From: Haliotis rufescens
Taxonomy: Eukaryota
Assembly (NCBI RefSeq): GCF_023055435.1
Contig: NW_025963802.1
Span: 42,470,001 to 42,534,000, forward strand
Length of the DNA: 64,000 bases
Reading direction: 5' to 3'
A model generated the notes under the pieces. It was given only the letters and a program-made list of their open reading frames with translations, was not told the DNA's origin and did not search any database. Positions 6,143 through 55,325 of the stretch are shown here, in pieces. Position 1 is the stretch's first letter, and each line of letters begins with the position of its first letter. The position numbers and the translations under genes are program-made.

Positions 6143-6504
6143 AATATGAATATCAGCAAATATAATGGTAAATCTAGTGATGCTATGTATCGGTTTTCAA
6201 CAAATATTAGTGGGTAGAATCATAAGGGACCAGTGATCTACTGTCGACTATACAGGGAGTTTAATGGAGGCAGATGTTTGTTACTCTAACAAGCCAAAGC
6301 TTCTTGAATTATTTATTCACTTGTGAGCTATGGAGCGTTGTTGCTCTGTTATTATTTTTATTTTGTTGTTCTAAAATTCATCAAAATTTATTTGTACAGA
6401 CAATGACAACTAGACCAGAAACCTCCAACAGGTCTAAAATTCTTTAATCACTGTATTGAAACATTTCTTTTCTGAGTGATTGAGAAAGACTTTTGTTATT
6501 TCAG

Positions 6505-6968
6505 TTAACCTTGAAGGTTTTGCCAAGACATTCTGTAACGTTACCACAGAAACTATGAAGGAATTGAAATTACCTGAAATCCACATGATTGATATAAATC
6601 CAAAGGTAATAGCAAGTCTGAAGAAAATATTTGATTCTTGTCTCACCCTGGAATCACAAGAGGAGACTATGGACATAGATGTTGCTGGAGCTACTGGAGG
6701 GGAAAAAGAGTGTTCAATCTGCAAGGACACCTGCACAGATCCCAAAATGCTAGAGTGTGGGCACAGGTTCTGCAGTGGATGTATTGATCACTACTTCAAC
6801 AATTACAAGCCTGTGTGTCCAAATTGTGGTGCCATTTATGGGCCAGTGTCAGGAACCATGCCAAAAGGTTCAATGAGAATCAATGTGAACAATTACAATC
6901 ATCTCATGGGACATCCACATGATGCAACGATTTGTATCACATACAACATTCCAAATGGAATTCAAACA
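6505..6968 (+). CDS. DTX3L-like gene 1, internal exon: macrodomain C-terminal half, C3HC4 RING, start of DTC
   Basis: tttcag acceptor (phase 1) and ACA|gtaagt donor; CSICKD..CGHRFCSGC..CPNCG then GTMPKGSM..TICITYNIPNGIQ. Confidence 0.88.
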
Positions 6969-7918
6969 GTAAGTAATATGTGTAATTAATACAATTGTGA
7001 ATGCATTTGTTATGGGTAGCTTAACATCATGTTCTTTCTCAGTTGTCTGTCATCTGTCCATTTAGTTTTACAGGTTTGATGCAGTATTGAAGCAGAAAAC
7101 TAGAATGGATGATTCCCAAAATGGTTTCTTTGCAAATTGCAATATGTTTGTTATGACCCAATCTTGTTTTGTAAATGTCCATAACTGCATTCATTTTGAA
7201 AATGGTATTTTGACCCTTTGCTCGGATATATTTCTGAATATGTCATTATGAAATTTGTAAATAAATATATAATGTAGGCCAGGCCACATGTTTGTGACTG
7301 ACTTGGTCTGACTGTGACCTCTTTTTTCAGTTTGGTGACAAGAATTGTTTAGATACAATATTGTGTTTGGCCAATGGCGAGTTATAATGAAAAACTTGTT
7401 AATGCATTGTGTGGTTATTGTCATACAATCTACTTGTATGTATAATTGAATATCAACAAATATCTGAACACAGTTGTTAGATATTGATTTTGCTACAGGT
7501 TACTCTTTGTGACAAAGCTTCATGTTTCACTGAATTCAAGCACAGACAATACCAGATAATCTTGATTTTGTTTCCTTGGTGTCACTTGCAGTCTGTCATT
7601 AAGGCATAATGATGTTATGGCCAAATATTTGTTTTCATATTTGCCCCCACTATGATGTAGAAAAGAGATTCAGAATCAGGATTTCCCCTGACACAACATT
7701 CTTGTGTCTGTGTATAGTTAAAACTAGCAAACTTTCAGTTAATATAAAACAAAGTGGTATTTTGTATAGATTTCTATAACAGGCAGTCAATACTATAACA
7801 CACTGATTCAGGCGAACAAACATGAGATAACAAACTTGAACAATGGAACTCTGAATCATTTTGCTTTTTTACTACATGTAGATGCTATGATTTACAATTT
7901 CAATTGAATTTCCTGTTG

Positions 7919-8997
7919 GGCTTAAAAAATAAAAGAATTGGTTCTCAGGCAATGGCTTTTGAAAATATAGTGCAGGCGGGCTCTGTTTTGTTTTGTTTTG
8001 TTTTGGGGGGTTGTTCAAACTTGTATTTAACCAATTAACATTTGTGAACAATCACCCTGGGAAAGGGCCTCCCCATATAAATGTATTCCTTGATGAGTAA
8101 AATACTGGAATACAGTATTGGAGTGCCGTTGGACTACCAGCTAGTATGTGCATGATACACTCATACAATGAGCTTTGATTTTATTTCACATTGCAAAGAT
8201 GTTAATGTGAGCAAAGAAGAAGAATGTCAACAAATCCATACTAAAGTATGTAAGTTACTCCTATTATATCACTATTTGGCTATATAAGTATTCATTGTGT
8301 ATCTGGACTTACGTTTGTAATCCATTATATTACTTTTATCCAAGATTTCATTCAATTTTGTTTACATTAATTTCGGCGAAATTGTGTATGAACTGATCAG
8401 CAAATAACATCAATTCACCAAGAACTCGCCTTGAAACAAACATTCGTCGTCAGAGATACAAAGTCTTCAGTCTTCCTGTAACTATATTGAAATTTCTTTT
8501 CAGTTATGATATTGGCCATGACATAAGTATTTCATAAACTAAATCACCCACAGATAGGGGAGAAAATGTGTGAATAAATGATTGCTATTTCCAGCTTATT
8601 TTATGAGAAAAAACACATGTAATCTTAATCTCTGCGTATGAAACATTGTCCGTCATACTGTACTCAAATACCATTGAATTTGTAAATCATTATGTCTAGC
8701 GATGTTTTTTTCCTAAATTTCGTGTTTTCATTGACCAAACGTGCAAACAGCAAAACAAGCACACAAACCACCACGTGCCGCCACCACCTTAAAATGAGAT
8801 GTGCAGTAAAGCAGTGCTAATGTGAGGGGAATATTTGTTTTTAAGTATTGTAGCATTTCACTGCTAGGGCCATGTGTTAGAGATGGGCAACATTCAAGGA
8901 TTTAATTTCCTGTGAAAATGGAAATAAAAACGAAACGTGCGGCTGACTTGATGATGATGTAGCGATGCCTGTGAACCAAGACTATTTTTTTTTAGCC
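7919..8997. mobile_element. Old non-autonomous DNA transposon with imperfect ~40-bp TIRs
   Basis: GGCTTAAAAAATAAAAGAATTGGTTCTCAGGCA vs reverse complement of TGCCTGTGAACCAAGACTATTTTTTTTTAGCC. Confidence 0.5.
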
Positions 8998-9705
8998 TTA
9001 TGGTTAGCATTTTTGTATATGCAGAAATTAAGATCAATGTGTGAAATTGTCTCTTTAAATAAGCAGTTACACACATTTTCTCCATGATCTACCAGTGATA
9101 CAGTTGCCAAAAAAGAAATACACTAACTTGAAAGCATTTTAATGCAATGACTGAAGGAAATAATATCTGAAACTGTTATTGTACCAGAAAACATACATTC
9201 TAATAATATCTTGATATTTTAGCCTTTGCTTTTCCTATATATATGTATTTATTTTTTATGTAAAAAGATAGTAAGGATAGTAGTTTGGAATATTACCTGT
9301 TAATTTGTACATATGGAACAGTTTTATGAGTCACAGTTTCAGAGCATCTAATTGTGACAAGAACACTTCCAGTAGTCCTGTTATTTTGATCATGAAAACA
9401 ATCTATTAATATACACTATTCAAACAACAACAAATGTGACTTTACACGAGGCCACGAGAATTGCTTTTGATACATGTTCAAGTCAAGATGTTTGTAGCGA
9501 TAACATGATTGTGGTTGCAGTAAATATTGGTGACTTTGTGCTATTGATATAAACAACATTGAAAATTTTGAATGCAATTAAAAACAATCTGTTACAAACA
9601 CAAGTTCAAATATAAAATGAACTCTTTTTCATAACCTGATAGTGTAATAACAGGACTAATTTGCATGCTTCACTTAAGATTTGTTGGCATGCCATCGATG
9701 TTTTC

Positions 9706-9833
9706 NNNNNNNNNNNNNNNNNNNNNNNNNNNNNNNNNNNNNNNNNNNNNNNNNNNNNNNNNNNNNNNNNNNNNNNNNNNNNNNNNNNNNNNNNNNNNNN
9801 NNNNNNNNNNNNNNNNNNNNNNNNNNNNNNNNN
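9706..9833. other. Assembly gap
   Basis: Run of N. Confidence 1.
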
Positions 9834-10209
9834 TGTGCACCCCCTCCACACAGTGTTAATATTTGGGGGGAAATGTGCCTTATACACATCAAAATACAGT
9901 ACTCTATTCTCATATATAATGGGTCAAACAAACTGATGTTAGAACTTTTCTACATTTGAAAGTTATGGTCACTCTAAATTCTTGCCTAGCAGTCCCAAAA
10001 CACACTTCACACATTAGGGCACCATTCATTAAAAAACAAAACAATATGATACACATTTTTAAGAGGAAGTAACAGTCATTGTTGTAGTGTTACATGTTAC
10101 ATAAGTTGTTAACTGCAATTATACTTTTGGGACTCAAATCTTTATTTTGACCCACAAGAGTCACCATACTCCCAAAATAGAAATTAATTAAAAAACTTTA
10201 GATAGCTAA

Positions 10210-10434
<225 letters not shown>

Positions 10435-34439: not shown

Positions 34440-37341
34440 ATGTATATACACTTTATTCAGATGTATTGTAGGCCATAGGCCCATGATACAATGGTTACAG
34501 TGTGGTAATGGGAGTTGGAGATCCCAACAGACTTTGCCTTAGATTCATAGCTTTTAGAATATACATGGCTAGTTTCTTAACAGTAAATGGGTTAGTGGAT
34601 GACATTAAAATATTGTACTTATGTCTTGTCGGGAACTCATTATAATGCAAGGATATATATTCTGACCTCAAAGCTTGATAACAATCACAAATTAAAATGA
34701 TACTCATCTTCGATATAACCATGTTTACAAACAGTACAAACTCTTTCTTCTCTAGGTTCCTTATTATGTCTACCTGATTCAATTCTTAGATGATGAGAAC
34801 TACATCTGAAACGTGCCATAATACTTCTAAATTTATCACATGATAGCCTTGTAATATACATTTCAACACCAAATGTTTGCTTATACAAAGAATAATAATA
34901 TGATTTCGAACTTTCACGTATAGCTGAATGCCAGTCTTGATGGTACGATAATTTTAGCCTCACAAAAAAATCCTTTATGAACAAAGGTATATTTGCAACA
35001 CACTGTTGATCCCATATAAAACCAAATCCTGCTGACACAATTATGTGTCTAATTTTGGAAACCCAGTTTACCTTACCATTACTTACAGCTTGCAGTTGCA
35101 TATTATAGCATTTCTTTACATATCTAGATTCTGGCATTTTCAAAATTTTGCACCAATATTTAACAACTCTTTTATAAGCATAAATGTATAGAGGATATCG
35201 GCCACATCCACCTCTTATAATGTGATTTGAGGTGGAGACCTTAACACCTAAAAAGTGCTTATAAGCCATCATGTGAATACTTTCAATATAATTACAAATT
35301 TCAGGACTCAGACCCCATATTTCCGCTCTACATAGCAAAATTGGGCTAATTTTGGTATCAAATATTTTAAAAAATAAATCAAAGGGTATGGGCTTAAAGT
35401 TGGACAGAGATTTCAGTATGCCACATAGTACTTTCTTAGCTTGTAGTGCTGCAACCTTAACATGTTTACCCCATGAAAAAGTTCTTGTAAAAGATAAACC
35501 TAAATATTTGTACGAGGTTACACACTCAAGACTGAAGCCATCAAAGTTCCATTTCTCATACTTTGATAAAACACCACCTTTTTTAAAAAAATGACTTTAG
35601 TTTTTTCCAGATTAACACACAAATGGTAGGTATCACAAAAATATTTTAACGTATCAATACGTTTCTGAAGACCATATACAGTGTCAGAAAGCAAAACAAC
35701 ATCATCTGCAAATAATAACAAAAATAGTTGAATAAGTTCAGGATGAAGCTGTATGCCTGTTGAACAAGAAAATTCTATATCCTTTGCCAACTCATTTATA
35801 AGCATAGAAAATAATAATGGACTTAAGACGCATCCCTGCCTTAAGCCAAGAGGACAATGAAATTCTTCAGAGAAAATATTATTTGACCTTACACTAGCCT
35901 TAACACACTTATATATAGACTTTAAAGAAAGTAAAAACTTGGTGGATACACCCTGCTGCATTAATACAGACCACAATTTAGACCGATCAACAAGGTCAAA
36001 AGCCTTTTTAAAATCTACAAATAATGCATAAATTTTGCCATGCTTTTTTGCTAAATAACGCTGAATGACTGCTTGTAAAATATAAATGTTGTCTATTGTA
36101 CTGTATTCTTTCCGAAAACCAGCTTGGGATTCCACAATTTTATCATATGCACTGGACCAAAAGGATAGCCTGTTATTTAAAATTGAAGTATAAAGTTTAC
36201 TAAATACACTAAATAAAGTTATTCCTCTATAATTATTGGGTAGGGAGGTATCACCTTTCTTATGTAATGGAATTATTATGCCAGTACACCAAGATTGTGG
36301 AAAGCTACCTGAGTCAAAAATAATATTAAAGACAAGTTCAATATATGGTACTAAAATATCCTGAGCAGCCACAAAGAACTCTGGTATTATATGATCCAAC
36401 CCTGCAGACTTTGAACATTTAAGCTGTGAAATTGCTTTTAATATTTCCTCTCGGGAGATAGGTGAATCTAAAATATTCTTAGAGACATCATCAGTTAAGG
36501 TATTTCCACATGGTTTAACAACGTCATCAAAACACTCATTGTCAACTTCACCAGCATCTTCATGTGAGTCTGTCGAATAAACAGAACTATTAAACAAATC
36601 ATTAAAATGCTCATACCACATAATTGAAGATGTAGGTGATATATTATTACTAGATGATAAACAATCTCTCAATATTCTCCAAAAATCTTTAGCATTATTA
36701 ATATGTGACAATAATTTAACTCTAATCTTCTCAGCATAAAGTCTCTTTTTGTTCCTAAGAATAGTTGTGTACAGATTACGGGCTGTAATAAAGTTCTGAA
36801 GAGATATATTGTCCCTGAGTTTTCTGAATACTTTCAAAAGTCTATCTCTTTCCATCCTGGAGTAAACACATTCCTTATCATACCAAGGTTGTGACTTCGG
36901 TTTTATGGCCAGATCCCTTTTCATACAGTCAGCTGCGGAGCATATAGCTGTGGTAAGTTTGTCTATAGCTGCATCAATATCAGTCATAGCTACGTCAGAG
37001 CATGACATTAACATATTTAAAATACCTGGTGTCATAAGGTTGTCCCTAAAATCAGACAGCTTGTCAGTGTCCCACATATATTTATAACTGGCACTTGCAC
37101 CAGCCCGTGCTTCTTGCCTCTCTGCGTGTGCTGCCGACTGAACACGTGATTGAAATGAACATGAGACCGGTAAGTGGGGGGATTCCCCTCTCGAGACAAT
37201 ATTAAAGCTATCACACAACGAAAACAGGTTGCTGGAAGCAATAATATAGTCAATCACACTTGTTCCTGTGGAACTGATATAGGTAAAATCACCTGTACCG
37301 GCATCACGACCCACTCTTCCATTTAATATATTCAGATTCAA
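34440..37341 (-). mobile_element. 5'-truncated LINE (RTE-X/Proto2-like ORF2: end of APE, RT, C-terminal CCHC), two frameshifts
   Basis: SVIDYI..SPHLP, NYRGITL, QAGFR, FVDFKKAFD, GLRQGCVLSP, LLFADD, HHLRIESGR..CTVC..EDEYH; AATAAA near the 3' end; satellite resumes on both sides. Confidence 0.95.
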
Positions 37342-38212
37342 AGTAGGCTTGTTATATCCGTCTTATTGTTTAAGGTGGGCTTGTTATATCTGTCTTATTG
37401 TTTAAGAGAACAAGCTCATAACCTAGATCTCTGTTCTGTGTGCAAATCCTTAAAGTGGATTAAAATATGTTATTGTCATAAGCTATACGTGATTGAAAAC
37501 ACATATCTGATGGATTTAATAATGCTTTTGTAGATATATAATATCCCCTGAAAATGCAGTAATGCCGTGGCCATTCTGAGTTATTTAAAGTGGCTGTTCG
37601 GACCTTTTTGTTTATGGCCGTTAGGACTTTTCTTTGTGGCTATTTTGACGACGGTTTTGTGGCTATTTTTACTTTTCGAGGGGGTCTTGATTATTTAGTT
37701 TTCAGGCCATTCTGACATGAGACTGTTTAGACTACATCTCCCATCCTGTGTACAAGTTGGTTAGGAGCTTACAGGGTGCAGAGATGACCTTAAATCATTA
37801 GTCATGGTACAACACATTTTCAGATCATTTAAGAACTGGCTTCAATCTGTTTTTGCGTTTATGGATATCTTCTGTAAACAATCATTTCAGACCCCTGACA
37901 CACAAATTAGACCTTCAATGACAAATCTGTCAAAACAAATTTAAACAAACAGTGTTAAACTGCCCTTAAGTAATATATCTGTCAGTGAATTTTGATGCGA
38001 TCAGTAAATTGTCAGATTTATTTATATTTCTGGACATTCTTGGTGGGACTTCTTGGTCACTTCGAGAAGGAAACTGGGGACTGTCTTTCATTCAATTATA
38101 AACATGTTTACAGTTGTAGCTCCTGCTATTTTAAAGTGGATTTAGAAAGCTTGGTGATCAATGCTTGCATGAAACATAGCAATCGACCCATTCTCCCCCT
38201 AAGACAGATGGA

Positions 38213-38353: not shown

Positions 38354-38915
38354 TAAGACAGATGGAACACATTCTTTTATTGAATGACTTTTACCCTGTG
38401 AGAGAGTATTTTAAGATCGCGTGACTTCAACAAACATGTCTTCAACTTACACAGAGTATCGATGGGTTTAATTTGGGATGATTTTGATAAATAGACATAA
38501 GTGGACATGGACACTGTATGAAAGCATAATATATTTGTATAGGATTTTAAAAGAAAATTCCAATGAGGTAGGTGTACAGCCAGGATTTGTCACTTTTTGT
38601 GGCAATGGTTGTGACGTCACTATGGTCCTTTTAGCATTGAATCTATTAATAACCTGTGTGAAAGCGAGGCTTGTTTTCATCTATGAGTGGTATCATGGGA
38701 TGGGCTCACACACTGATCATCAAATATATTCAGAAAAAATAAGAAAACTATCTGTGGTCATCTACGCTATTATTAGAATTCAAGTTCTGCACTTTTCATC
38801 ACCTGATGGCATTCTATAGAAAGAAATACTTATCCAAATGTTTCATAAGCATGTCATTTCATTTCATTTCATATAATTTCTTTGCTTATTCCTCTAGGTG
38901 CAGTTCCTGTGCAGA

Positions 38916-40026
38916 ATGTCCGAACCACAAGATAAAGTTGACGTAGGTAGCTTGAAAGACACATTCCTGGAGTGTCCAGTGTGTGGGGAACATTTCAACC
39001 AGACAGACCGTCGTCCTCGTCTCCTCCACTCCTGCTTCCATGCCTTCTGTACACAGTGTCTACAGCAGCTTCTAAAAAAGGAGGGAAGAGGCAAAATCAC
39101 ATGTCCTCTTTGTCGTACGGTTGAAAAAGTAACCGGAAATGCTGAAACACTAGAAGTGGATAGTCTCAGAGACAAACTGGTGGAGTTCCTGCAAATCAAG
39201 CACGATAAGAAGGTCCTCTGCAGTGAGTGTCTAGAGAAGACAGCGGCAGTGTCACGATGTGAAGAGTGTCAGAGCTATCTGTGTAAGGAATGTGACTTTG
39301 TTCACAGACGTCACCGGGTTAGCAGAGACCACTCGATACTTTCTTTAAATGATGTTTTGAAACAACCAATACAAAGTTTTGGAAAACGTCATTTTTGCCC
39401 CAACCATCCCAAACATCATCTCGAGTTCTACTGTGCAACAGAGGAGAAACTATGTTGTGTTTTCTGTATAGTGTTAGACCACAGGGATCATGAGCTACAA
39501 AAACTAGAGGAAGCTGCCGCAACAAGGAAAGAAGAATTAGACACAAAGATTAAGCAGGTTCATGCTCATGTAAATCGTCTGAGAGAGGAAAGGAAAGATG
39601 GAACTCAAGAGCTAAAATGTATTGAAGAAGCTAAGGCAAGGTCTATTTTGGATATCAACAGAATATTTGATGACCTGAAACAGAGTTTGGACAAACGTAA
39701 ACATGAACTGATTGAAAATGTACAGCGAAACAGTAGCAGTCTGTCTTCGGTTATCAACAAGACGATGGCATCTCATGAACAAACTCTGGCTATGATTGAG
39801 TCTACAGACACATATTTTGCACAAGCTAAGCAGGAAGCTGATGCTGTGGAGATGTTGGAAATATATCCATCAATCAAGAGAAGCATTGATAGTTTATCAG
39901 TTCAATGTCAGAGTTCCAAAACAAGAGGCAATGAAGATGTATACAACCTACAGTTCAAGCCAACGAAGTATGAAAATGTACTGTGTTTGATAAGAGAATT
40001 TGGAACATTTACTAAACTGCCCCAAA
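38916..40026 (+). CDS. Gene 2 coding exon 1: TRIM RBCC (RING, B-box1, B-box2, coiled coil; TRIM45/56-like)
   Basis: ctag acceptor at 38897, ATG 38916; CPVC..CFHAFCTQC..CPLC; CSEC..CEEC..LCKECDFVH..H; CPNH..FYCATEEKLCCVFC..H..H; A|gtaagt donor, phase 1. Confidence 0.93.
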
Positions 40027-40699
40027 GTAAGTTTGTTCTTTTGAAATTTCTTTTTGATTTCTGTCGACTCCAATTCAGTGACAAATCAACACACAGACCC
40101 ACACGTATCTGCCTGTGTGGTCCCAAATGCACAAAATAATCCTAGCACCACAGTTATTGTAATGTTTGTGAAATTTGAAGATCGCAACCTTAGGATTTAG
40201 CTAAAATATATAACCATTCGTTTGAATGCTACAGTTGACCCTACAACTCCTAATATGCACAGCTGATTAGTGCGTACATAACGATCGCCCATCAGAGGAC
40301 TGAGACCTTCAATAGGTTACCTTAAGAGTCACGATTTAGAAAAAAAACTTCATTCATTGTGTTTCATTTCATTGTGTTGTGTAAACAAAACAATCATGAC
40401 AGTCATCGTTAACCAACATTGCATGACGATAAACATTTCCTTTGAAACATAATATTAATGATATCCTTTTTTCCTTAATGTAACTGTAAGGCTGTTGCTA
40501 TTTTCACAATACTGAAATCTAACAATTGTATTTTGAAGCGTGTTTAAATGAAACTAATATAATTTACGAATCCTACCTCTATTAATCCATTGGCATAAAT
40601 CCTGTATTTTGGATGCAATCACACTAAACTTAACTTTCAAATTCTCAACATAAGTCTATGTCAACAATACACTAATTAATTGTGTCCGTAATAGCACCA

Positions 40700-45039: not shown

Positions 45040-45190
45040 AGGTTCTCATCAGGTGCCAACATTGAAATCTTCCCACTCCATGTCCTATTGATGCATCTCC
45101 AGAGATTGCAGGTCTGGAGGACAACATCTGAAATCTTCCCACTCCATGTCCTTAAAAAGCATCTCCATGAGTGCAGGTCTGGCTGCCAAC
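45040..45190. repeat. Left part of a 63-66-bp minisatellite
   Basis: CAACATTTGAAATCTTCCCACTCCATGTCCT units shared with 48197-48795. Confidence 0.85.
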
Positions 45191-47264
45191 GTTTATTTAT
45201 CTGTCTGCTTTAAATATGTTTCTTAAAGACTGAAAACAGAAGGTTTAACATCTTGTACCAACAACTGTACTGTATTAAAATTGGTCATAGGACCTCTGCA
45301 GATCCACTGAATTAGTTGGTAGTTAGTGTTCATATTACAGGAGGTGGCAGTACAGGAGATCTGTTTCTTGCCCGAGGCGAATGACTATTCCTTCGCGTTC
45401 CGGGATGAGGTGTGACATCCATGTCCTCTAGAATCTGAAATTTGTTGAAAAGTTGGACAGGATCACGTTGACCTTTTGGTATTCGATCAGATTTCTGTGA
45501 ATAGTTGAGTGTCTTGCTGGCATTTACCACAGTGGGAGATGGCGAACGAGATGTTGAACGAGACGGTGATTTGGATGGAGAGTTTGTTTGGGTAGATGCA
45601 ACAGACTGAGTATCGAGAAGTGAATATTCCTTATTCTTAACCCAGGTGATGTCCGTCTGGCATTCAACAGAGTGAACAGATTTGGAGCTTTTTTGAGGTG
45701 TACGTGCAACGGCTGCTGAATATGATACAGCTGCAGTTGGAGTGATAGATGACATTACGAAATGTTTGGCATCTGAAAAGAAATATTCCTCTAATGTTTC
45801 ATATTTACTATCTGGTGTTGTAGTTGCCAGACAGGACTGGATTTTGAAGATGCAACATGATCTCCAAAGCAGTTAGCACATTTCGGATCGTTTGAGCAGT
45901 CTAATGTATCATGGTCAGTGTTTCCACTCGAGGTGACACTTCTTTCTGTTGGTACATGATTGGGCACCAAGCCCAAACTTTCGACATGAGTAACACCGGA
46001 GTGGATTCGGTATGTCCTTGTCCACACCAATATTACAATACCCTGCTTTGACGGATTTTGGTGGAACCGAAACAGAAAAGGTAAAGAGATACGTGTTTAG
46101 CTTTTCAGTTTGACCGTTCTGTCTCTTGCTAAATCGTTTGACACCTGTTACACCCTGGTCTTTCAGTTCAAAAACTATATCATCTTCAGACATGTCTGAA
46201 AGACAACGTTCCCGGTCCCTGACAACGCCTTTAGAACTGTTCAGTGATTTGTGCGCTGATACAGTAACTGGCACAGAAATGTTTAACAGCCAACAGCGTA
46301 GCTGATTGTGAAGCAGATTTACATTCAACTAGTATTTTTTTCATGGTCACGAAATCTCTAGCAATACCATATATTGCTTTGGAAAGAGCAAAGGGATTTA
46401 TCTTCAAAGGTCAATCATCAGATGCTGAGATTAACAAAAATCGAGACCAAAAGACCTTTTCTTTGAAACAGTATCATCATCAGATGTACTATCATCTAAC
46501 GTACGTTTTAGTTGTTTTGGGGGTATCATGGTAAGTGTATAGAGGTTCATCGGCACAGCTCCCCACCCACCACGGAGTATCAATAAGACAATGCAATACG
46601 CCAGTGGGTCTCCGACTGACAGCACCAAGGATACTTGGGCGGTATACTCAAGCAGAAGTATTAATGCAAGAATAATAGATCTACCGGATTGGCCCATGAG
46701 TCACCGCCTTCTGGGCATATTTGACTCTAGGCAATGATTTGTATTCATTTTTTTCAACATATTGAAATTTAATGAACTGAGTGACCAAAACCCCAAAATA
46801 TACAATTAAATATAACATTTATGTGTAAAACAAATATACTTCACATTGCAATTAACCATTATAAATTCAATGAATTTGTCTAAGTTGAAAACAGATTAAT
46901 TGCAACTGTTGACATATCGTAGTTTGTTCAATTTTGTACAAGACAATGTTATTGCACGGGGCTTGGTGTGACCAGCCGATTGATAGAACCGGGCCAATTC
47001 TACCACCCGTCTAGGCGAGGTAAGGGTCGAAGTGGTGTATTGGGCAAAGAAACGCTATTCCTGGAACCAGTGCCCTCAACCACCAGACTACCGTCCTCCG
47101 CCGACACAGGGGCGCAACCCACGGCATACAGGTTGCCCAATTCGGTCGCCTTTTACGACCAGCAATGGGGTGCTGTGGACATATTCTACCCCGGGTCCAC
47201 ACAGGGGAAGAGCTATTAGCGCTATCCAGCACTCACCACGTGGAGGTTGCTCTTCACGAGTGCC
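45191..47264 (-). mobile_element. I/Nimb-like LINE 5' half (5'UTR, gag-like ORF1, start of APE ORF2), nested in a related element
   Basis: HKSLNSSKGVV, IPNPLRCYSCRKFG, CANCFGDH zinc knuckles; ORF2 start IQWICRG..L*ETYLK; 3' truncated. Confidence 0.9.
47207..47264 (-). ncRNA. HDV-like self-cleaving ribozyme (minimal P4)
   Basis: GGCACUC-GU-GAAGAGC-A-ACC-UCCACGU-GGU-GAGUGCU-GG-AUAGCG-CUAAUA-GCUCUUC fits P1/P2/P3/P1.1 with a G1-U wobble and catalytic C. Confidence 0.85.
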
Positions 47265-48196
47265 ACGTAGTGAAGATGATGGCGGAATATAAAGTGAACA
47301 CAAAGTGACCACAATATGCAGCGTAACACGAACTGCAACTGCCTGAAGAGGGGTATTGAGCGGAACAGGGCTCTGAATGGTGCTTCGACGCACCAAAATA
47401 GACGATCCTCCAGAAGCCTTCTCACCATTTCTCTTGGAAGAAAAACGTTTGACAGCAATTACATTTTGGCTTCTTAGTTCATCTAAAATGTCATTCTAAG
47501 TCATATCAGCGAGGAATCGGCCTCTGTCGCGCACAATTCCCTTACTGCTGTTCAGGGACCTATGCGGGGAAACAACAACAGGAACATTAGCAAGGGTCTT
47601 AATAGAGAGAAGACTAACTGCTTGCTTGTGTCGCAAACATCCACTGCATAATCTGTTTGCATCTTCAACATCACCAGCTGTGCCTTGTATAGCAAAGGGA
47701 TTAAGCTTTGGAGGAGTGTCGTCCAAAGGAGAAATCATCAAAACTCGAGGCCAGTTTTCAAATGTAACAGGGGGAGTCCGTGGACTATCATCCTCAGTAT
47801 CAAAACCATCATGTGAATCATGAGAACGTTTTTTTCATTGGGGGTTCCATGTTGGCAGTTATTTTGATTCACCCTCTTGGGTCCCCACCCACCATGGAGT
47901 GTCAACAATGTCATGTGCCTGTGGGTCTCCGACAGGCGACACCAAGGATGCCAAGAAGTTTTACTCAAGCGGAATTATTAATCGAAGATCAATAAATCCG
48001 CCTTCTGGCACTGGCATCTAGGCAAATTTGGAATTTATCAAGTTGTGCAAAAATCAATATTCATGTTTATTCAAACATTTCTGTCATAAATTCAAAAAAT
48101 TCAAAAAGGACATATTCCACCCCGGGTCCACGAGGGGGGAAGAGCTATAAGCGTTACCCAGCACTCACCAAGGGGAGGGTGCTCTTCACGAGTGCC
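47265..48196 (-). mobile_element. Second I/Nimb-like LINE 5' fragment (deleted ORF1, APE piece)
   Basis: KLNPFAI..PHRSLNSSKG; LNTPLQAVAVRV..CSLYIPP. Confidence 0.88.
48139..48196 (-). ncRNA. Second HDV-like ribozyme copy (P3 mismatch)
   Basis: GGCACUC-GU-GAAGAGC-A-CCC-UCCCCUU-GGU-GAGUGCU-GG-GUAACG-CUUAUA-GCUCUUC at the exact element 5' boundary. Confidence 0.75.
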
Positions 48197-48795
48197 GCCA
48201 ACATTTGAAATCTTCCCACTCCATATAATTATATGAAGCATCTCTAGTGAGTACAGGTCTGGCTGCCAACATTTGAAATCTTCCCACTCCATAAAATTAT
48301 GATGCACCTCCAGTGAGTGCATATCTGGCTACCAACATTTGAAATCTTCCTACTCCATGTCCTAATGATGCATCGCCAGTGAGGGCAGGTCTTGACGACA
48401 TTTGAAATCTTCCCACTCCATGTCCTAATGACGCATCGCCAGTGAGGGCAGGTCTGGAGGACAACATTTGAAATCTTCCTACTCCATGTCCTAATGATGC
48501 ATCGCCAGTGAGGGCAGGTCTTGACGACATTTGAAATCTTCCCACTCCATGTCCTAATGACGCATCGCCAGTGAGGGCAGGTCTGGACGACAACATTTGA
48601 AATCTTCCCACTCCATGTCCTTATGATGCATCGCCAGTGAGGGCAGGTCTGGAGGACAACATTTGAAATCTTCCCACTCCATGTCCTTATGATGCATCGC
48701 CAGTGAGGGCAGGTCTGGACGACAACATTTGAAATCTTCCCACTGCATGTCCTAATGATGCATCGCCAGTGAGGCAGGTCTGGAGGACAACATGC
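48197..48795. repeat. 63/66-bp minisatellite, about 9 units
   Basis: Direct repeats with partial 129-bp dimer structure. Confidence 0.95.
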
Positions 48796-49699
48796 CTTCT
48801 ATAAACAACCAACGTGGAGAACCTGAGATAAAGGTTTCTTTGAAGAGAGAAAGTCCACCACCTTCTGAACGCCAGCCATGCGTATACTGTGCCGTGATTT
48901 CACCATATCATTATAGATCAATATTGTAATAACATCTCCACTTAACGTAAAAGAGTTTACTCAGTTATTGCTATTCTCATTGTTTAAGAACATATTTAAA
49001 TAAATTTTAGTTTTTTTTATATCAGTTCAGTCTTGTTACTAAGTGCTTGTTTACGAGCCATTCGTGAGTCTACTGAAGTCTTTGATAGGCATTTGAATTT
49101 GGGAGAACATGAATACATGACACTTTTTATGGATAACAACTTCTTTTTTTCTTTGTCACGTTTCAGAGCTACTTCTTGCTCCTTCATCAGGTGAATGCTA
49201 ATTATTGTATGTACTTATGTACCCAGGTTAATTGGGATGTGACGACCACATGGTGACTATGATACGCTGTCACAATATGCCCTCAGTAAAGATAAGGTTT
49301 ATATCAATTGAGACAAAGTGCACATACCCTCTCACCAGGCAATACGTCCTTATAATACCATACAATGTATATTGTTCAGCAAATTAACGCTCTCCCACTT
49401 TACACTGACAGTAACATTCCCAAAACACACCCGATGACTAAGTAAAAATACCCAGGGATGTGTATCATATTGATATGCCACACCCAATTGTGAGGACAGG
49501 TTGTGAATTGTTTTTGTGTAGAAATCGTTCAACATCTGATATTGATGTATGTACTTCATAATTCTTTAATAAAAGTATATTTTCATAAATACGAAATACA
49601 CACAGAATAGTTATTGTGGTTTGCTACATGAAGTATTGTCATAAAATATTTAAGCTTGATATATTGAATTCCTTTTTTATTTGTATTTGTTGCTGAAAG

Positions 49700-50216
49700 A
49701 TTCCGAAGGTTGAAAGAATGATGTTACCGTGTGGCCAAGGAAAAGAAGCTTCTCGTAGTAAGAGGGGGTTTGCAACTGACATAAAACAACATGGAGATAT
49801 ATCATTTGTGATGGAATCAGGTGCTGCAGTAGCTGAAGGCCGAAGTTTTACTGTGAAAGTATACAAGGAAAGCATAGTAAGTCTGGCACTGGATGTTATT
49901 GTCAATGGGGCAAATGGACAGTTATCACATATAGCAGGTGTTGCTCGAAGCATTGCAAGGGCAGCTGGTCGGCAGCTGGAGTATGAAGGGAACAGCATTG
50001 TTCTACAGAGGGGAGACATTCCAGTAACAGATCTTGCTGTGACAAACTCAGGCAAGCTACCATGTAAGTGGGTTTTCCATGCAGTTGGTCCCAGGTGGAG
50101 GAACTACACCGACAAGGAGAGTTGCCTGGAGGATTTGTGCTGCACCATTCTCAGATGTCTCTGTGAAGCTGTCAACAGATCTTTTGAAACCATTGCATTT
50201 CCATCAATAAGTTCAT
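49700..50216 (+). CDS. Gene 2 exon: macrodomain 1 (PARP9/14-like), N-terminal ~80%
   Basis: VKVYKESIV..DVIVNGANGQLSHIAGVARSIARAAG..TNSGKLPCKWVFHAVGPRW..TIAFPSISS; T|gtaagt donor; acceptor at 49699 is less certain. Confidence 0.9.
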
Positions 50217-50289
50217 GTAAGTTAAACTTATAGTCTACAACTTGTTTTTCCAATGAGAAAAGATGAGGTATGATGAGAGCCCTTTTGGC

Positions 50290-51720
50290 TGAAAGGGTAC
50301 ATATTATTTGTGAATAGAGCAGAACAAAGCATGATGAAACTGTGTACAACAATGGCATGTTTGGGACGTATAATAACACTAAATGCTTGGGTAAGGTTAA
50401 ACTCTCTCAAAAAGAGCTGAGTTTAGAGGTTTTCAGAAAGAGTTTTTCTACTATTTGAACTTGAAAAAGTCTTTGTCCCAAGATGATTTTCTTGGGAGAT
50501 GTTGATAAACACAGCACAAATATGGGGTAAAAACTCATGCCAGAATAAAAATTGATGGATTGGGTGGTCAGGCTCAGTAGCTTGGTTTATTGCATGTCCT
50601 TGTGCCCCTACAGTTTGGATCGTTGCTCATGTCATTTACTGGTTATATTGCTGCATGCAGCATTAAGCAACAAACACACAAACTTGACAATACGTTTAAC
50701 ATACAATTAAAAATTCTATCAAATCTATCAATTTGACCATCACAAGTACTGGCAATGATTTTTCATTTGGATGCTGAAAAAATTAAGATTTAAAAAATGA
50801 GAAAATATTGTGTTATCGATTTCTTCCACATGCCCCGGTCCACAACTTCATATTCCTCAACCAATATTTTCTGACAATCATGATGTAAAACATGTATATG
50901 TCCTCTGTGTCCATTTGTCCGACAATATTATGTCCTGGAACAACTGAAATTGTGTAAAAGGGTACATATTATTTGTGAAAAGAGCATTACAAGGCATGAT
51001 GAAACTGTGTACAACAATGGCCTGTTTGGGACGTATAATAACCTAAAATGCTTGGGTTAGGTTAAAATCTTTCAAAAAAGGGCTGAATTTAGAGGTTTTC
51101 AGAAAGAGTTTTTCTACTATTTGAACTTGAGAAAGTCTTTGCCCCAGGCGGATTTTCTTGGGAGATGTCGATAAAAACAGCATAAATATGGGGTAAAAAC
51201 TTAGATTTTCTCTTGAAGTTTGTATTAGATCATGCCAGAAGTAAAAACATGTTAGTGTAAGAAAGAGGAATGCTTTTCATACCAATATTTCAAATTTGTC
51301 CACAACTTGAACCTTTGACCTTTTCAGTGAGAAAGAGCCTGCATTATGCATTGTGTTCTTTGACAATTATCATCAACTTATAGACAAATCATATGCAAGC
51401 ACTCATCACATTCAAGAGTTCACTAAATTCATCACTATTATTAAGGCAAACACAGTTTACAACTCTTCTTAGACTCTTGACATGCCCCTGATGAGATGCC
51501 AGTTTAGAATCTGTTGGTAATGAGGGCGACTTGATGGATTGGGTGGTCAGGCTCAGTGGCAGTGGCCCCTACAGTTTGGATCGTTGCTTATGTCATTGAT
51601 TGGTTTTGTCTGACTTGATTATTGACAGGCCGCTGTCATACAGCTGGAATATTGCTGCATGCAGCATAAAGCCACAAACACACTAACTTGACAATACGTT
51701 TAACATACAATTAAACATTT
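50290..51720. repeat. Intronic duplication (50290-50720 vs 50955-51720) including SINE fragments
   Basis: AAAGGGTACATATTATTTGTGAA..TATGGGGTAAAAACT and GATGGATTGGGTGGTCAGGCTCAGT blocks each occur twice. Confidence 0.88.
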
Positions 51721-52269
51721 CTATCAAAAACAACTCATAATGGACTAATAACATCTAAAATGGTTAAGTTTGAAACAAAATGTTTAAACAGTCAGTTTTA
51801 ACAAAATGTAACAGGATAATATCCTAAGACTGCATTGTGTCATAATCTTATTGTATATACAAATGTACTAGCAATGGTCAATGATACACTAAACTATAAC
51901 AACACAATTTGTGTGGCTACACGTAATGGTTCATTTTGTTAAAGGGAAAATATTGTCAATATTAAGCATTTTAAAATGATCAATGTATTCTTGAAAGGAA
52001 CGTGGGCCACAACTAAAGTAAAATATTAAGTTTCATATCAATAAACACATCATTTATCAGTCTTGTAATCATAAAGCTCAATTAAGATCAAAATATCAAA
52101 GAGCAATTGTACTTTTTTCATTGCAAAATGAACATTTATTTTGAATTTGTATAGCTGCAACATTTATGCAGAATTAGTGTTTCTGTCAGCTGTAATCAAG
52201 ATAGATATATAGATAGATAGATTCTTTTTTAATCACATGAACTATAGTCATTATTATGATGCAGTTATC

Positions 52270-52510
52270 TGTTGGTTTGTTGTTTTACACCGCACTCAGC
52301 AATATTCCAGCTATATGACGGCGGTCTGTAAATAATCGAGTCTGGACCAGACAATCCGGTGATTAATATCATGAGCATCAATCCACGCAATTGGGATCGA
52401 TGACATGCATCAACCAAGTCAGCGAGCCTAGCCATCCGATCCCGTTAGTCGCCTTTTACGACAAGCATGGGTTGCTTAAGACCTATTCTACCCCAGATCT
52501 TCACGGGTCC
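52270..52510 (-). mobile_element. Near full-length non-tRNA-head SINE (RUDI/V-SINE-like)
   Basis: Head GACCCGTGAAGATC..GTAGAATAGG..GTCGTAAAAGGCGAC; multiple fragments elsewhere in the window. Confidence 0.8.
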
Positions 52511-55325
52511 AATTATCTGTAAAACATATCAAGTATGACATTTTACATATTTTAAGTTATAGTTGATAAATTTCTGTTTTGTGTACTTCCTTTGTGCAAA
52601 AGTTTAAAGTGCAAGTCTCATGGGTATATATACAACTTTGCAGATTTGGATAGATCGTAAATGCAAATAGCGTATTCAAAACATCGAAAGCAGCTCTTAA
52701 TTAAGGTTAATTTGCACTCTTTTCTTGTTTAGCAATTTCAAAGGCTGAAACAAACATATGGTGGAGGCGGAGCCTTTATATACACAGGCTCCATATATGG
52801 TCCTATTGGGGGAAACTACCTCCAAAATAACATGCTTGATCGCACAGGCTACCTCCAGCATTTCACACTTGATCGTGTGACTTTAAATTAACTCACTCAC
52901 TCCCACTTGATCGAACAAGACCACTGCTCCGTTCGGACACTAGCAGGCAATTTACATCACAATATTCGGTGAGAAAACTATGTGCAAAACATGCTATTTC
53001 TTCGGTTGCGTTTATTGTTTGCATTACAAACATTGACACTAGTTTACGAGTTATTATGGACAGTGAATGTTTCTCAGAAGATGAATTGGTGATTTGTGCG
53101 AAAGAAGTACAACTGAACCCCTACCTGTGACCGACAATAGTGACGAAAATGATCAGGATGATTCCCATCTTGGAAACATGGATGACAAGTGATTGCAAAA
53201 CACAGATTAGTTTGTTTGCTTTGTTTATTTCCTCCAAATCACAGTATCCCGTTTGTGTCTTGAAATAGCACATAAAAGATGAAGTGACATGTCATAGACT
53301 AAGTAAATCCGTGTTGCTAACATGTTACATTAGATTATTCACATGGCTGAGTGATTTATGATACCTGGACTGACTGCACGCATACTTTACGCAATAATCT
53401 CCTGCAGTTGCATGTGACATAAGTGGCAGTAGGTGAGATTAGCACTAACTGGCTACAACAATCAATCAATCTCTTTCTTTAGAATGGCACATATTGAGCT
53501 GGGGTGGAACCTGCGCCCCCAAAATTCTAAAATTGAAAGGAAAATATCTTGCAATGTTAATATTATATAATTTGTGTTAAATCAAGGTTACTTGACGCGC
53601 CCGCCACTAGTCAATCGGTTGACATATGTAGAATCCATATCAGTGTTCAGTATAGACACCATAGGTCTCCCCACAACTAATGAAACCATCATGAATATTC
53701 TGTACCAGGCTGGTTGTAGCACCCAAACAGCTTACAGGCCTAGCAGGACATTAGGCCATGCCTTCTTGTTCGTGCTTTTAAGATTCGGTTGGGTTGTTAG
53801 AAATACAGACCTCAAAATATGTACTTTGATTCAACTTAACAGTGCTGTTTTCACACTTTTTCTCTTGGCCATTGTAGTGTATGTAGCAGGGCTACATAGT
53901 GATGTTAGGAAAAATTTTATTGCTATTTTTTCATGATACTTGCACTTTAAGATAATCCAAATTTTGAATACTGCAGTCAGGTCTAATATTACATGACTGA
54001 TATGTGTTCAGTTATTTGATGGTACTGATCAGATCTTGTTAGCAATGATTTACAATAAATCTTCAGGTGAGTAAACCTTGATTTCAAAGCCACATTTTGA
54101 ATACCAGTATATCTGCATTGACGGTCAAAACCTTCTCACTTGACATCTATTTTTTAGTAGTAGCCTGCAACCTCGGGGTATCGCGGTACTTGTCATGTAC
54201 GCTAAACGGAACAAAATGCACTCACTAACCTTTATGATTATTTGTGTTCTCTGTATCAGATATCATTCATGTGATCAAACAATGCATATTTTACTGATAA
54301 AAGTTCATTATTTACATCAGTAGCTCCGAGTAAAAGCCGGGCCTCGCGCTCTGTTTGACAAGGTAGAGAACTCCATCGTATCGCGGTACAGAGAAAAGTT
54401 GTGTATGGAGGTCCGAATTGGACAAAAAGAGGACATAATTCTACCAACCACTTGGTATGATCATGCCAGACATCAGTGATTTGTCCAGACAAGTGCAAAG
54501 ACAGCACAAGTAAAATTCTAAATGTGTTATCAGCAATAGGTATTCAATGCATATTTACCGAAAAGTAAGAGAAAAATATTTATATAAGTCAACATCAAAA
54601 TATCAGAAATGATATTTTAAGATTGTTTAAAAAAGATTGGATGACAATAATTTGTCACAAAATGGAAAAATGTTAAAAGTCAACAATAAATATATAAAAA
54701 GCACTCCTAGTATGCCCAAAGTGTGTATTTATCTTTTGGTGACTAGTGAAGAACGTATTTTTAATTTTGGCATTATGGCCCTTATGATCTCCCAATAGAT
54801 TCTGGGCACCGAGCGGGAAAAAATGTGCGGACTACGTAACTTCCGTTACCTCATTAGTCGCCATGAATATGCAGATGATCTAGTTCAGGTCGATAGAGAA
54901 AGTTTACTTGGGGAACTGCGGGTTATATCGTTGGCCATTGATAGATGGGGGTAAGGCAATATTACAACAGATGCCAGAAATATGTATCAACGGATTAATA
55001 ACTCCTTACTTACAGCAGACAGAACATTGCGAGGAAATTGAAATTGTTTACGAAGTGAGCACTTCCTGGTTACTGATTTGCATTAATAGACAGCCGCTAA
55101 GAGGCGTGTCCCGCGTGAACTATCGGAAATCACAAATGCCGCGATACGATAAATGCCGCGGTACCATGGGGTCCGAGTATATAGGTAATGATGGTTCTGG
55201 ACCACTTCCACTGGAGTCAGATTTATATACAAATACTGCTACTACAGATGGAATTTTTTATGCAAAAATGATCATGCGATCCAACGATCGCATGAAGATC
55301 AAGTTAAATTGGCTCTAGCTCACCA

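Follow-up and report, generated by a model that had tools for sequence, protein, structure and literature searches.

A P4-less HDV-like ribozyme fold at the 5′ ends of an I/Nimb-like LINE family in the abalone Haliotis rufescens

What are the two similar stretches of 58 nucleotides on the minus strand of this Haliotis rufescens locus, each lying where a retroelement begins? The original prediction was that both are minimal HDV-like ribozymes, marking the exact 5′ ends of nested I/Nimb-like LINEs. Our analysis of the window (the whole stretch of 64,000 nucleotides), of the family to which the two elements belong and of related LINEs from other animals leads us to the following reading, to which we assign a probability of about 0.8: two decayed LINE copies, A and B, begin with these stretches of 58 bases, and the minimal HDV-like fold likely cuts RNA before the first base (G1), converting read-through transcripts to unit-length element RNA. 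The arguments are presented below, together with the alternatives.

Ribozyme B (47207..47264, minus strand, G1 at 47264) is an intact minimal HDV-like fold, as judged from descriptor scans, Rfam and the family tally. Its P1 (47264-47258/47234-47228) comprises 7 bp, including the pair G1-U37; J1/2 consists of 2 nt, P2 of 8 bp with one bulged A (7 bp had been predicted), P3 (47247-47245/47237-47235) of 3 bp and P1.1 of 2 bp, with its GG at 47227-47226, while L3 (47244-47238) is the 7-nt UCCACGU. The position of P4 is occupied by a 6-nt linker (47225-47220) between P1.1 and the catalytic C, with no P4 helix, in agreement with the expected reduction of P4 to about 6 nt, and J4/2 is CUAA, with the predicted catalytic C at 47219 (C46). 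All four helices of the nested double pseudoknot (P1, P2, P3 and P1.1) are paired in the 58 nt of B, and its HDV-like signature is complete (the G1 pair, U...CG in L3, CC/GG in P1.1 and C-x-R-A in J4/2; features according to a passage of PMC6326823). Ribozyme A (48139..48196, minus strand) has the same head, identical to that of B over the first 16 bases, and carries three core changes: the first P3 pair, at which its fold fails, is a C-U mismatch (48179), L3 is UCCCCUU, its conserved G being gone (48171), and J4/2 is CUUA, its purine being gone (48149). Matched by neither the strict nor the relaxed descriptor, A is predicted to be inactive on the grounds of the descriptors and the family tally. 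Hence, from the predicted pair of ribozymes B holds, with all of the quoted motifs but the length of P2, whereas A, altered in P3, L3 and J4/2, does not.

The strict descriptor found in the window B (score 18.9) and one weak match (11.8), and in 20 shuffled windows two weak matches, the better of which scored 14.1. Rfam at the gathering level gave no ribozyme in the window, its sole match being tRNA-like and located elsewhere. The best Rfam match for B was HDV-F-prausnitzii (RF02682; 47264-47208, 25.5 bits, E 0.028), below the gathering score of 44; this model represents one bacterial ribozyme with a P4 and also missed the eight homologous folds described below (within 10 loci scanned). For A the values were 19 bits and E 0.89. 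Nested thermodynamic folding of B gave a z of -1.0, the method being uninformative for a double pseudoknot. The best non-pseudoknot fold of B (-17.2 kcal/mol) sequesters the P1 3′ strand with the linker and the catalytic C; this competing hairpin is strongest in the G43 variant, represented by 49 of 112 copies, B among them, and, according to the folding model, may slow the variant. Of the young copies, L064 carries G43 and L079 A43.

The first 20 nt of the family have 1,104 exact matches in the genome, where the search for the family yielded 2,280 candidates, 40 of them scored. Its elements are mostly 6.0-6.25 kb long, encode ORF1 of about 450-500 codons and ORF2 of about 1,230 codons, end with an (ACTC)n tail and are flanked by target duplications of 12-14 nt. 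Pfam domains found in ORF2 of one copy (L064), Exo_endo_phos, RVT_1 and RNase_H, correspond to APE, RT and RNase H; zinc knuckles of ORF1 were seen by eye, and Pfam gave none. The designation I/Nimb-like is derived from this domain layout and the shared head, rather than from a tree with named references. A limpet homologue is 66% identical, and a search of the H. rufescens genome for a second family with the same core and another P1 gave 0 matches. A 200-nt 5′-only (3′-truncated) copy with a perfect 17-nt duplication (L008, 1506-1720) is likely a product of internally primed reverse transcription.

In a sample chosen regardless of the 5′ end (the 30 first-by-coordinate matches of an internal 20-mer), the element starts at G1 in 28 cases, is about 5 nt short in one and is another element in one. 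A more distal motif, whose sample overlaps the former, gave a start at G1 in 25 of 30 matches, one short copy and four copies starting at the LP head (see below). A duplication of at least 9 nt was found in 32 of the 37 copies spanning G1 to the tail; it abuts G1 exactly in 26 of the 37 and is mostly 12-14 nt long. In two public runs, 63 and 66 contigs have unrelated loose ends at G1. The sampled copies, duplicated loci aside, have no shared sequence upstream of G1, and the comparison of copies showed no family 5′ ends running past G1, the observation which, according to the original prediction, would speak against it. The claim that G1 is the first base of the element, made for both copies, is thus confirmed by the family, and so, given the fold in B, the boundary counts and the ORF2 domains, is the broader claim that an I/Nimb-like LINE family begins exactly with a P4-less HDV-like fold.

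The same sharp boundary would arise if G1 were the start site of an internal promoter; in this case the 58 nt would be conserved as DNA, and the fold would be a relic or too slow a cutter. The existence of the competing hairpin in B agrees with this, as do two precedents: the LP ('LINE promoter') head, situated here behind the ribozyme, has been proposed to be a promoter (in a passage of PMC4758252), and the first 77 nt of L1Tc are described as promoter and ribozyme at once (in a passage of PMC3383444). The pattern of variation bears on this directly. In 114 distinct copies, variants common to at least four copies occupy 0 of 38 paired and 6 of 20 unpaired sites; at positions 21-58, which lie outside the motif used to collect the copies (positions 1-20), the tally is 0 of 20 paired vs 6 of 18 unpaired sites (p 0.007). 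The shared variants affect the free base of L3, two bases of the linker, the position following the catalytic C, the bulge of P2 and, in scattered copies, the L3 G; all of them are positions that HDV-like folds leave free, which argues against a promoter. On the other hand, invariance extends to J1/2 and to several bases of the linker, as a promoter would allow. All but one of 112 ungapped copies retain the catalytic C, and the fold is wholly intact in 77 of 114. ORF2 is open (1,227-1,236 aa) in 15 copies, and the fold is intact in all 15, while none of the nine copies with a damaged fold has an open ORF2 (partly an effect of age). As judged from sequence variation, these tallies show that the paired sites of the fold are under selection. 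No covariation of the ribozyme helices was found among the copies of the family compared, and therefore the structure rests on their invariance and on distant homologues.

Such homologues were sought in 69 loci obtained by an ORF2-alignment scan of metagenome contigs. The strict descriptor proved too narrow (one weak match in the 69 loci); the relaxed one, widened after homologues had been noticed by eye, scored 45.7-58.9 in eight of them, the best shuffled score being 35.4 in 913 kb, and a control with the catalytic C replaced gave no new locus above 42. Seven of the folds (L186, L192, L195, L197, L204, L207 and L214) are located upstream of ORF1 in the sense orientation, and the eighth (L215) is on the opposite strand. 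All of them possess a P4, and the sequences of P1, P2 and P3 are all different. They include several oddities: one J1/2 of 153 nt, one insertion in L3 (a hairpin of about 35 nt, in the fold at L204 125) and two flipped P1.1 pairs (in the folds at L186 308 and L214 79, which begin with C and have L3 UUGCCGY and CU after P1). Locus L194 retains the 3′ half of an HDV-like fold only, and L234 and L185 start with the LP head and have no ribozyme; many metagenome contigs end early. In the ORF2 tree, built of unnamed relatives only, L204 (with a ribozyme) is sister to L234 (without one), which means that the presence of the ribozyme is patchy. The homologous folds, each known from a single contig, probably mark the 5′ ends of their elements. 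Since related LINEs keep the fold though every helix has changed, and since G1 coincides exactly with the predicted cut site, we consider it unlikely that the conserved 58 nt are just the start of a promoter.

According to a passage of PMC4758252, the LP head is a 70-nt sequence common to two Nimb LINEs, an RTE and mollusc LP-SINEs. In B it occupies 47138..47207 (minus strand) and was recognized by eye from its likeness to the Nimb-17-homology head (Matetovici 2016) and to the head of the H. rufescens LP-SINE: family positions 58-125 contain a C-run, a hairpin around a GTAGAAT loop and a second short hairpin. The test for a Nimb-17-type head was this by-eye likeness to the supplementary Fig. 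S2 of PMC4758252, and the same head type occurs also on an RTE element. In the described elements (Nimb-17_LMi, I-3_DR, RTE-9_CPB and mollusc LP-SINEs; passage of PMC4758252) LP makes up the first 70 nt, whereas here it is preceded by a 57-nt ribozyme. The H. rufescens LP-SINE is about 255 nt long, has an (AAAC)n tail and is represented by 23,648 exact motif matches; 30 loci with LP-SINE-type heads (L101-L130) have no ribozyme in front. We rejected the identification of the published LP head with the ribozyme, as LP begins after the ribozyme and these 30 loci lack one.

Among 20 copies of the family picked for lacking the exact first 20-mer, eight start at the LP head, seven have a mutated ribozyme and five are truncated. 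The LP-start copies are old and deleted, with 64-87% identity to the nearest neighbour, while all young copies, with nearest neighbours up to 100%, are among those that have the ribozyme. The eight old copies indicate that the clade can transpose without a ribozyme; either they predate it or they arise from an inner start. The order of gain and loss did not emerge from a tree of the heads with 44 rows, in which 5 of the 37 branches were starred.

The excess of young copies among those with the ribozyme would also be expected if the ribozyme is active but mainly serves something other than release from read-through transcripts, namely protection of the 5′ end, completion of cDNA or translation of transcripts initiated at the element's own promoter; IRES-like and protein-binding roles have indeed been proposed for the R2 and L1Tc ribozymes (in a passage of PMC6765202). 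However, the family forms dense clusters with copies within copies, a setting in which co-transcript release helps: in 58 long loci we counted 10 extra heads on the same strand and three on the opposite one. Five copies (L077, L083, L085, L086 and L090) show self-nesting with a duplication, and L069 and L070 are head-to-tail fusions without resumption of the outer copy. These roles and release do not exclude each other, and a main benefit other than release seems to us improbable. As for a chance resemblance to the HDV fold, the sub-threshold Rfam score and the absence of a folding z-score signal leave some room for it, but the descriptor controls, the coincidence with the 5′ boundary and the pattern of variants make it next to inconceivable. 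Four of the copy-into-copy junctions (47265 of the window and those in L077, L085 and L069) fall in two tight spots of the APE region (reference positions 2189/2195 and 2289/2292), which may be hot spots, though the cases are few.

If, as we suppose, the ribozyme releases the element from longer transcripts, the J4/2 cytosine (47219 in B) would cut 5′ of G1, leaving a 5′-OH at G1, and the element RNA would thus be freed from transcripts started upstream, among them transcripts of copies that adjoin or surround the element. Reverse transcription up to the cut end would then produce copies with a sharp boundary and a target duplication touching G1. The ribozyme was presumably added in front of the older LP head, which may still act as a promoter.

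The heads of the family are more similar than the bodies (median identity 92% vs 79% in RT). RT identity is below 85% in 11 of the 25 pairs whose heads are at least 98% identical; for instance, heads of L070 and the inner copy of L082 are 98-100% identical to that of L173, the RT only 76-83%. As far as can be judged from sequences, this points to an exchange of heads between LINE lineages. In one small-RNA run (X23) 135 reads matched the family, of which 127 were antisense, about 30 nt long and with one start inside the LP head (L064 327-357); they are piRNA-like and possibly copies of one molecule. Another run (X22) gave 0 reads on the family.

Behind the LP head lies a conserved 5′ UTR RNA module of 150-200 nt (in B, 46962..47139, minus strand), retained in 14 aligned LINEs of the clade (alignment A2). 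Double-sided changes support 25 of its 45 pairs, in addition to which there is an invariant 4-bp pseudoknot; the structure was derived from the same alignment, and invariant pairs alone prove nothing. Neither the module of B nor those of its homologues have an Rfam match, and a loose literature search revealed no prior report of it. The module is a candidate for an IRES-like or catalytic RNA and, in the former case, could answer the question of how uncapped LINE RNA is translated, by providing cap-independent initiation. A wider scenario, which we put forward as tentative and rather doubtful, is that the 5′ region of I/Nimb-like LINEs throughout animals is a cassette of modules that can be swapped: an exchangeable HDV-like ribozyme (repeatedly gained, lost or replaced), the LP head and this pseudoknotted RNA, which would be catalytic or would allow the uncapped, self-cut RNA to be translated independently of a cap. 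In this scenario one head, by acquiring the 57-nt ribozyme, was able to sweep several LINE bodies in H. rufescens.

As to the locus itself, both A and B are dead as elements. Element A (47265..48196, minus strand) consists, by BLAST to copy L093, of the head, a part of ORF1 following a deletion of about 270 nt in the 5′ UTR and, after a further deletion of about 1 kb, an APE fragment (47265-47427). Element B retains, behind its module, a broken gag-like ORF1 (45330..46529, minus strand; zinc knuckles by eye) and the APE start of ORF2 (45197..45333, minus strand), which ends abruptly at about 45197. Outside G1 of B lies the APE sequence of A (from 47265), and outside G1 of A a 66-bp minisatellite (48197..48793), both as had been described. 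The minisatellite resumes after B (45050..45194), returning at 45194 10 nt ahead of the register of A's G1; its first 10 nt there match the 10 nt before A's G1 at nine positions, possibly a target-site duplication of the whole A+B block. Neither a tail of B, nor a duplication of its target, nor the remainder of A was found at the locus, and searches for an empty site returned only other arrays of the minisatellite. With B so incomplete, A not resumed and the minisatellite back at 45194, the nested arrangement that had been proposed is not directly visible here; it is plausible by analogy with the five self-insertions mentioned above. Either B inserted into A and the 3′ parts of both were lost in a later deletion reaching as far as A's duplication, or a single insertion was primed within B's RNA and, on arriving at the 5′ end of that RNA, switched to a second template. 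The antisense orientation was borne out by the closest exons of the plus strand (RING/B-box, 38898-40136; macro, 49697-50230), which belong to TRIM- and macro/Deltex-like genes; a minus-strand transcript could still be a substrate of B's ribozyme, and the host RNA of the plus strand would be spared.

The use of an HDV-like fold by LINEs to cut their own 5′ ends is an already known strategy. A list of 2018 (in a passage of PMC5786205) names the clades R1, R2, R4, RTE, Ingi/L1Tc and LOA (Baggins), I and Nimb being absent from that passage. With these clades our family shares the fold at the exact 5′ end, the cut site at the first base and the predicted co-transcript release; it differs from them as a two-ORF, I/Nimb-like family with APE, RT and RNase H. 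In Pr77 of L1Tc ribozyme and promoter overlap, whereas here the ribozyme and the proposed promoter stand in tandem. A P4-less version in a mollusc had been called less familiar; a closer precedent is, however, an HDV-like ribozyme of another abalone, Haliotis discus, with 5 nt in place of P4 (Webb and Luptak 2011, as cited by Eickbush 2013 in a passage of PMC3774820, which mentions silkmoth R2 and an abalone as P4-less forms). There, too, a marine snail has a few bases where P4 would be, 5 nt vs 6 nt here; our comparison relies on that citation, and the passage links the H. discus ribozyme to no LINE clade. The two may represent the same family, because the H. rufescens LP-SINE of about 255 nt resembles a 255-bp abalone family in a passage of PMC4758252. 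The minimal drz and theta ribozymes (passage of PMC10879173) likewise have about 56-58 nt, no P4 and a catalytic C in J4/2, and such P4-less ribozymes are active in phages; but about 99% of them are from phages and often cut tRNA trailers, whereas here we deal with the head of an animal LINE, more than 1,000 copies and a bulged 8-bp P2.

We found no report of a ribozyme in the Nimb or I clade, though figures or supplements of Ruminski 2011, Webb 2009, Webb and Luptak 2011 and Raghavan 2007 may list one. New here are the link of the ribozyme to an I/Nimb-like clade, its position ahead of the known LP head from which older copies start, the swapping of heads between lineages and the covarying pseudoknotted RNA behind. 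If our reading is true, an I/Nimb-like clade has to be added to the LINEs with 5′ ends defined by an HDV-like ribozyme, and animal P4-less ribozymes, whose role is called open in a passage of PMC10879173, receive a genomic home and a likely job. Natural pairs with and without the ribozyme (old LP-start copies; the sisters L204 and L234), together with young intact copies, make it testable what use a ribozyme is to a LINE with a possible promoter of its own.

The window contains several other features. On the plus strand (6480-10434, 38898-40136 and 49697-62663) there are two Deltex/DTX3L-like genes with RING, DTC and macro domains, and the RING-B-box-coiled-coil exon among them may be a part of the second one. 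On the minus strand, a 32-bp satellite harbours another, unrelated RT-bearing LINE (34688-37362), and clustered ORFs (55326-58574) with an integrase core probably represent the remnant of a DNA transposon or a Polinton-like element.
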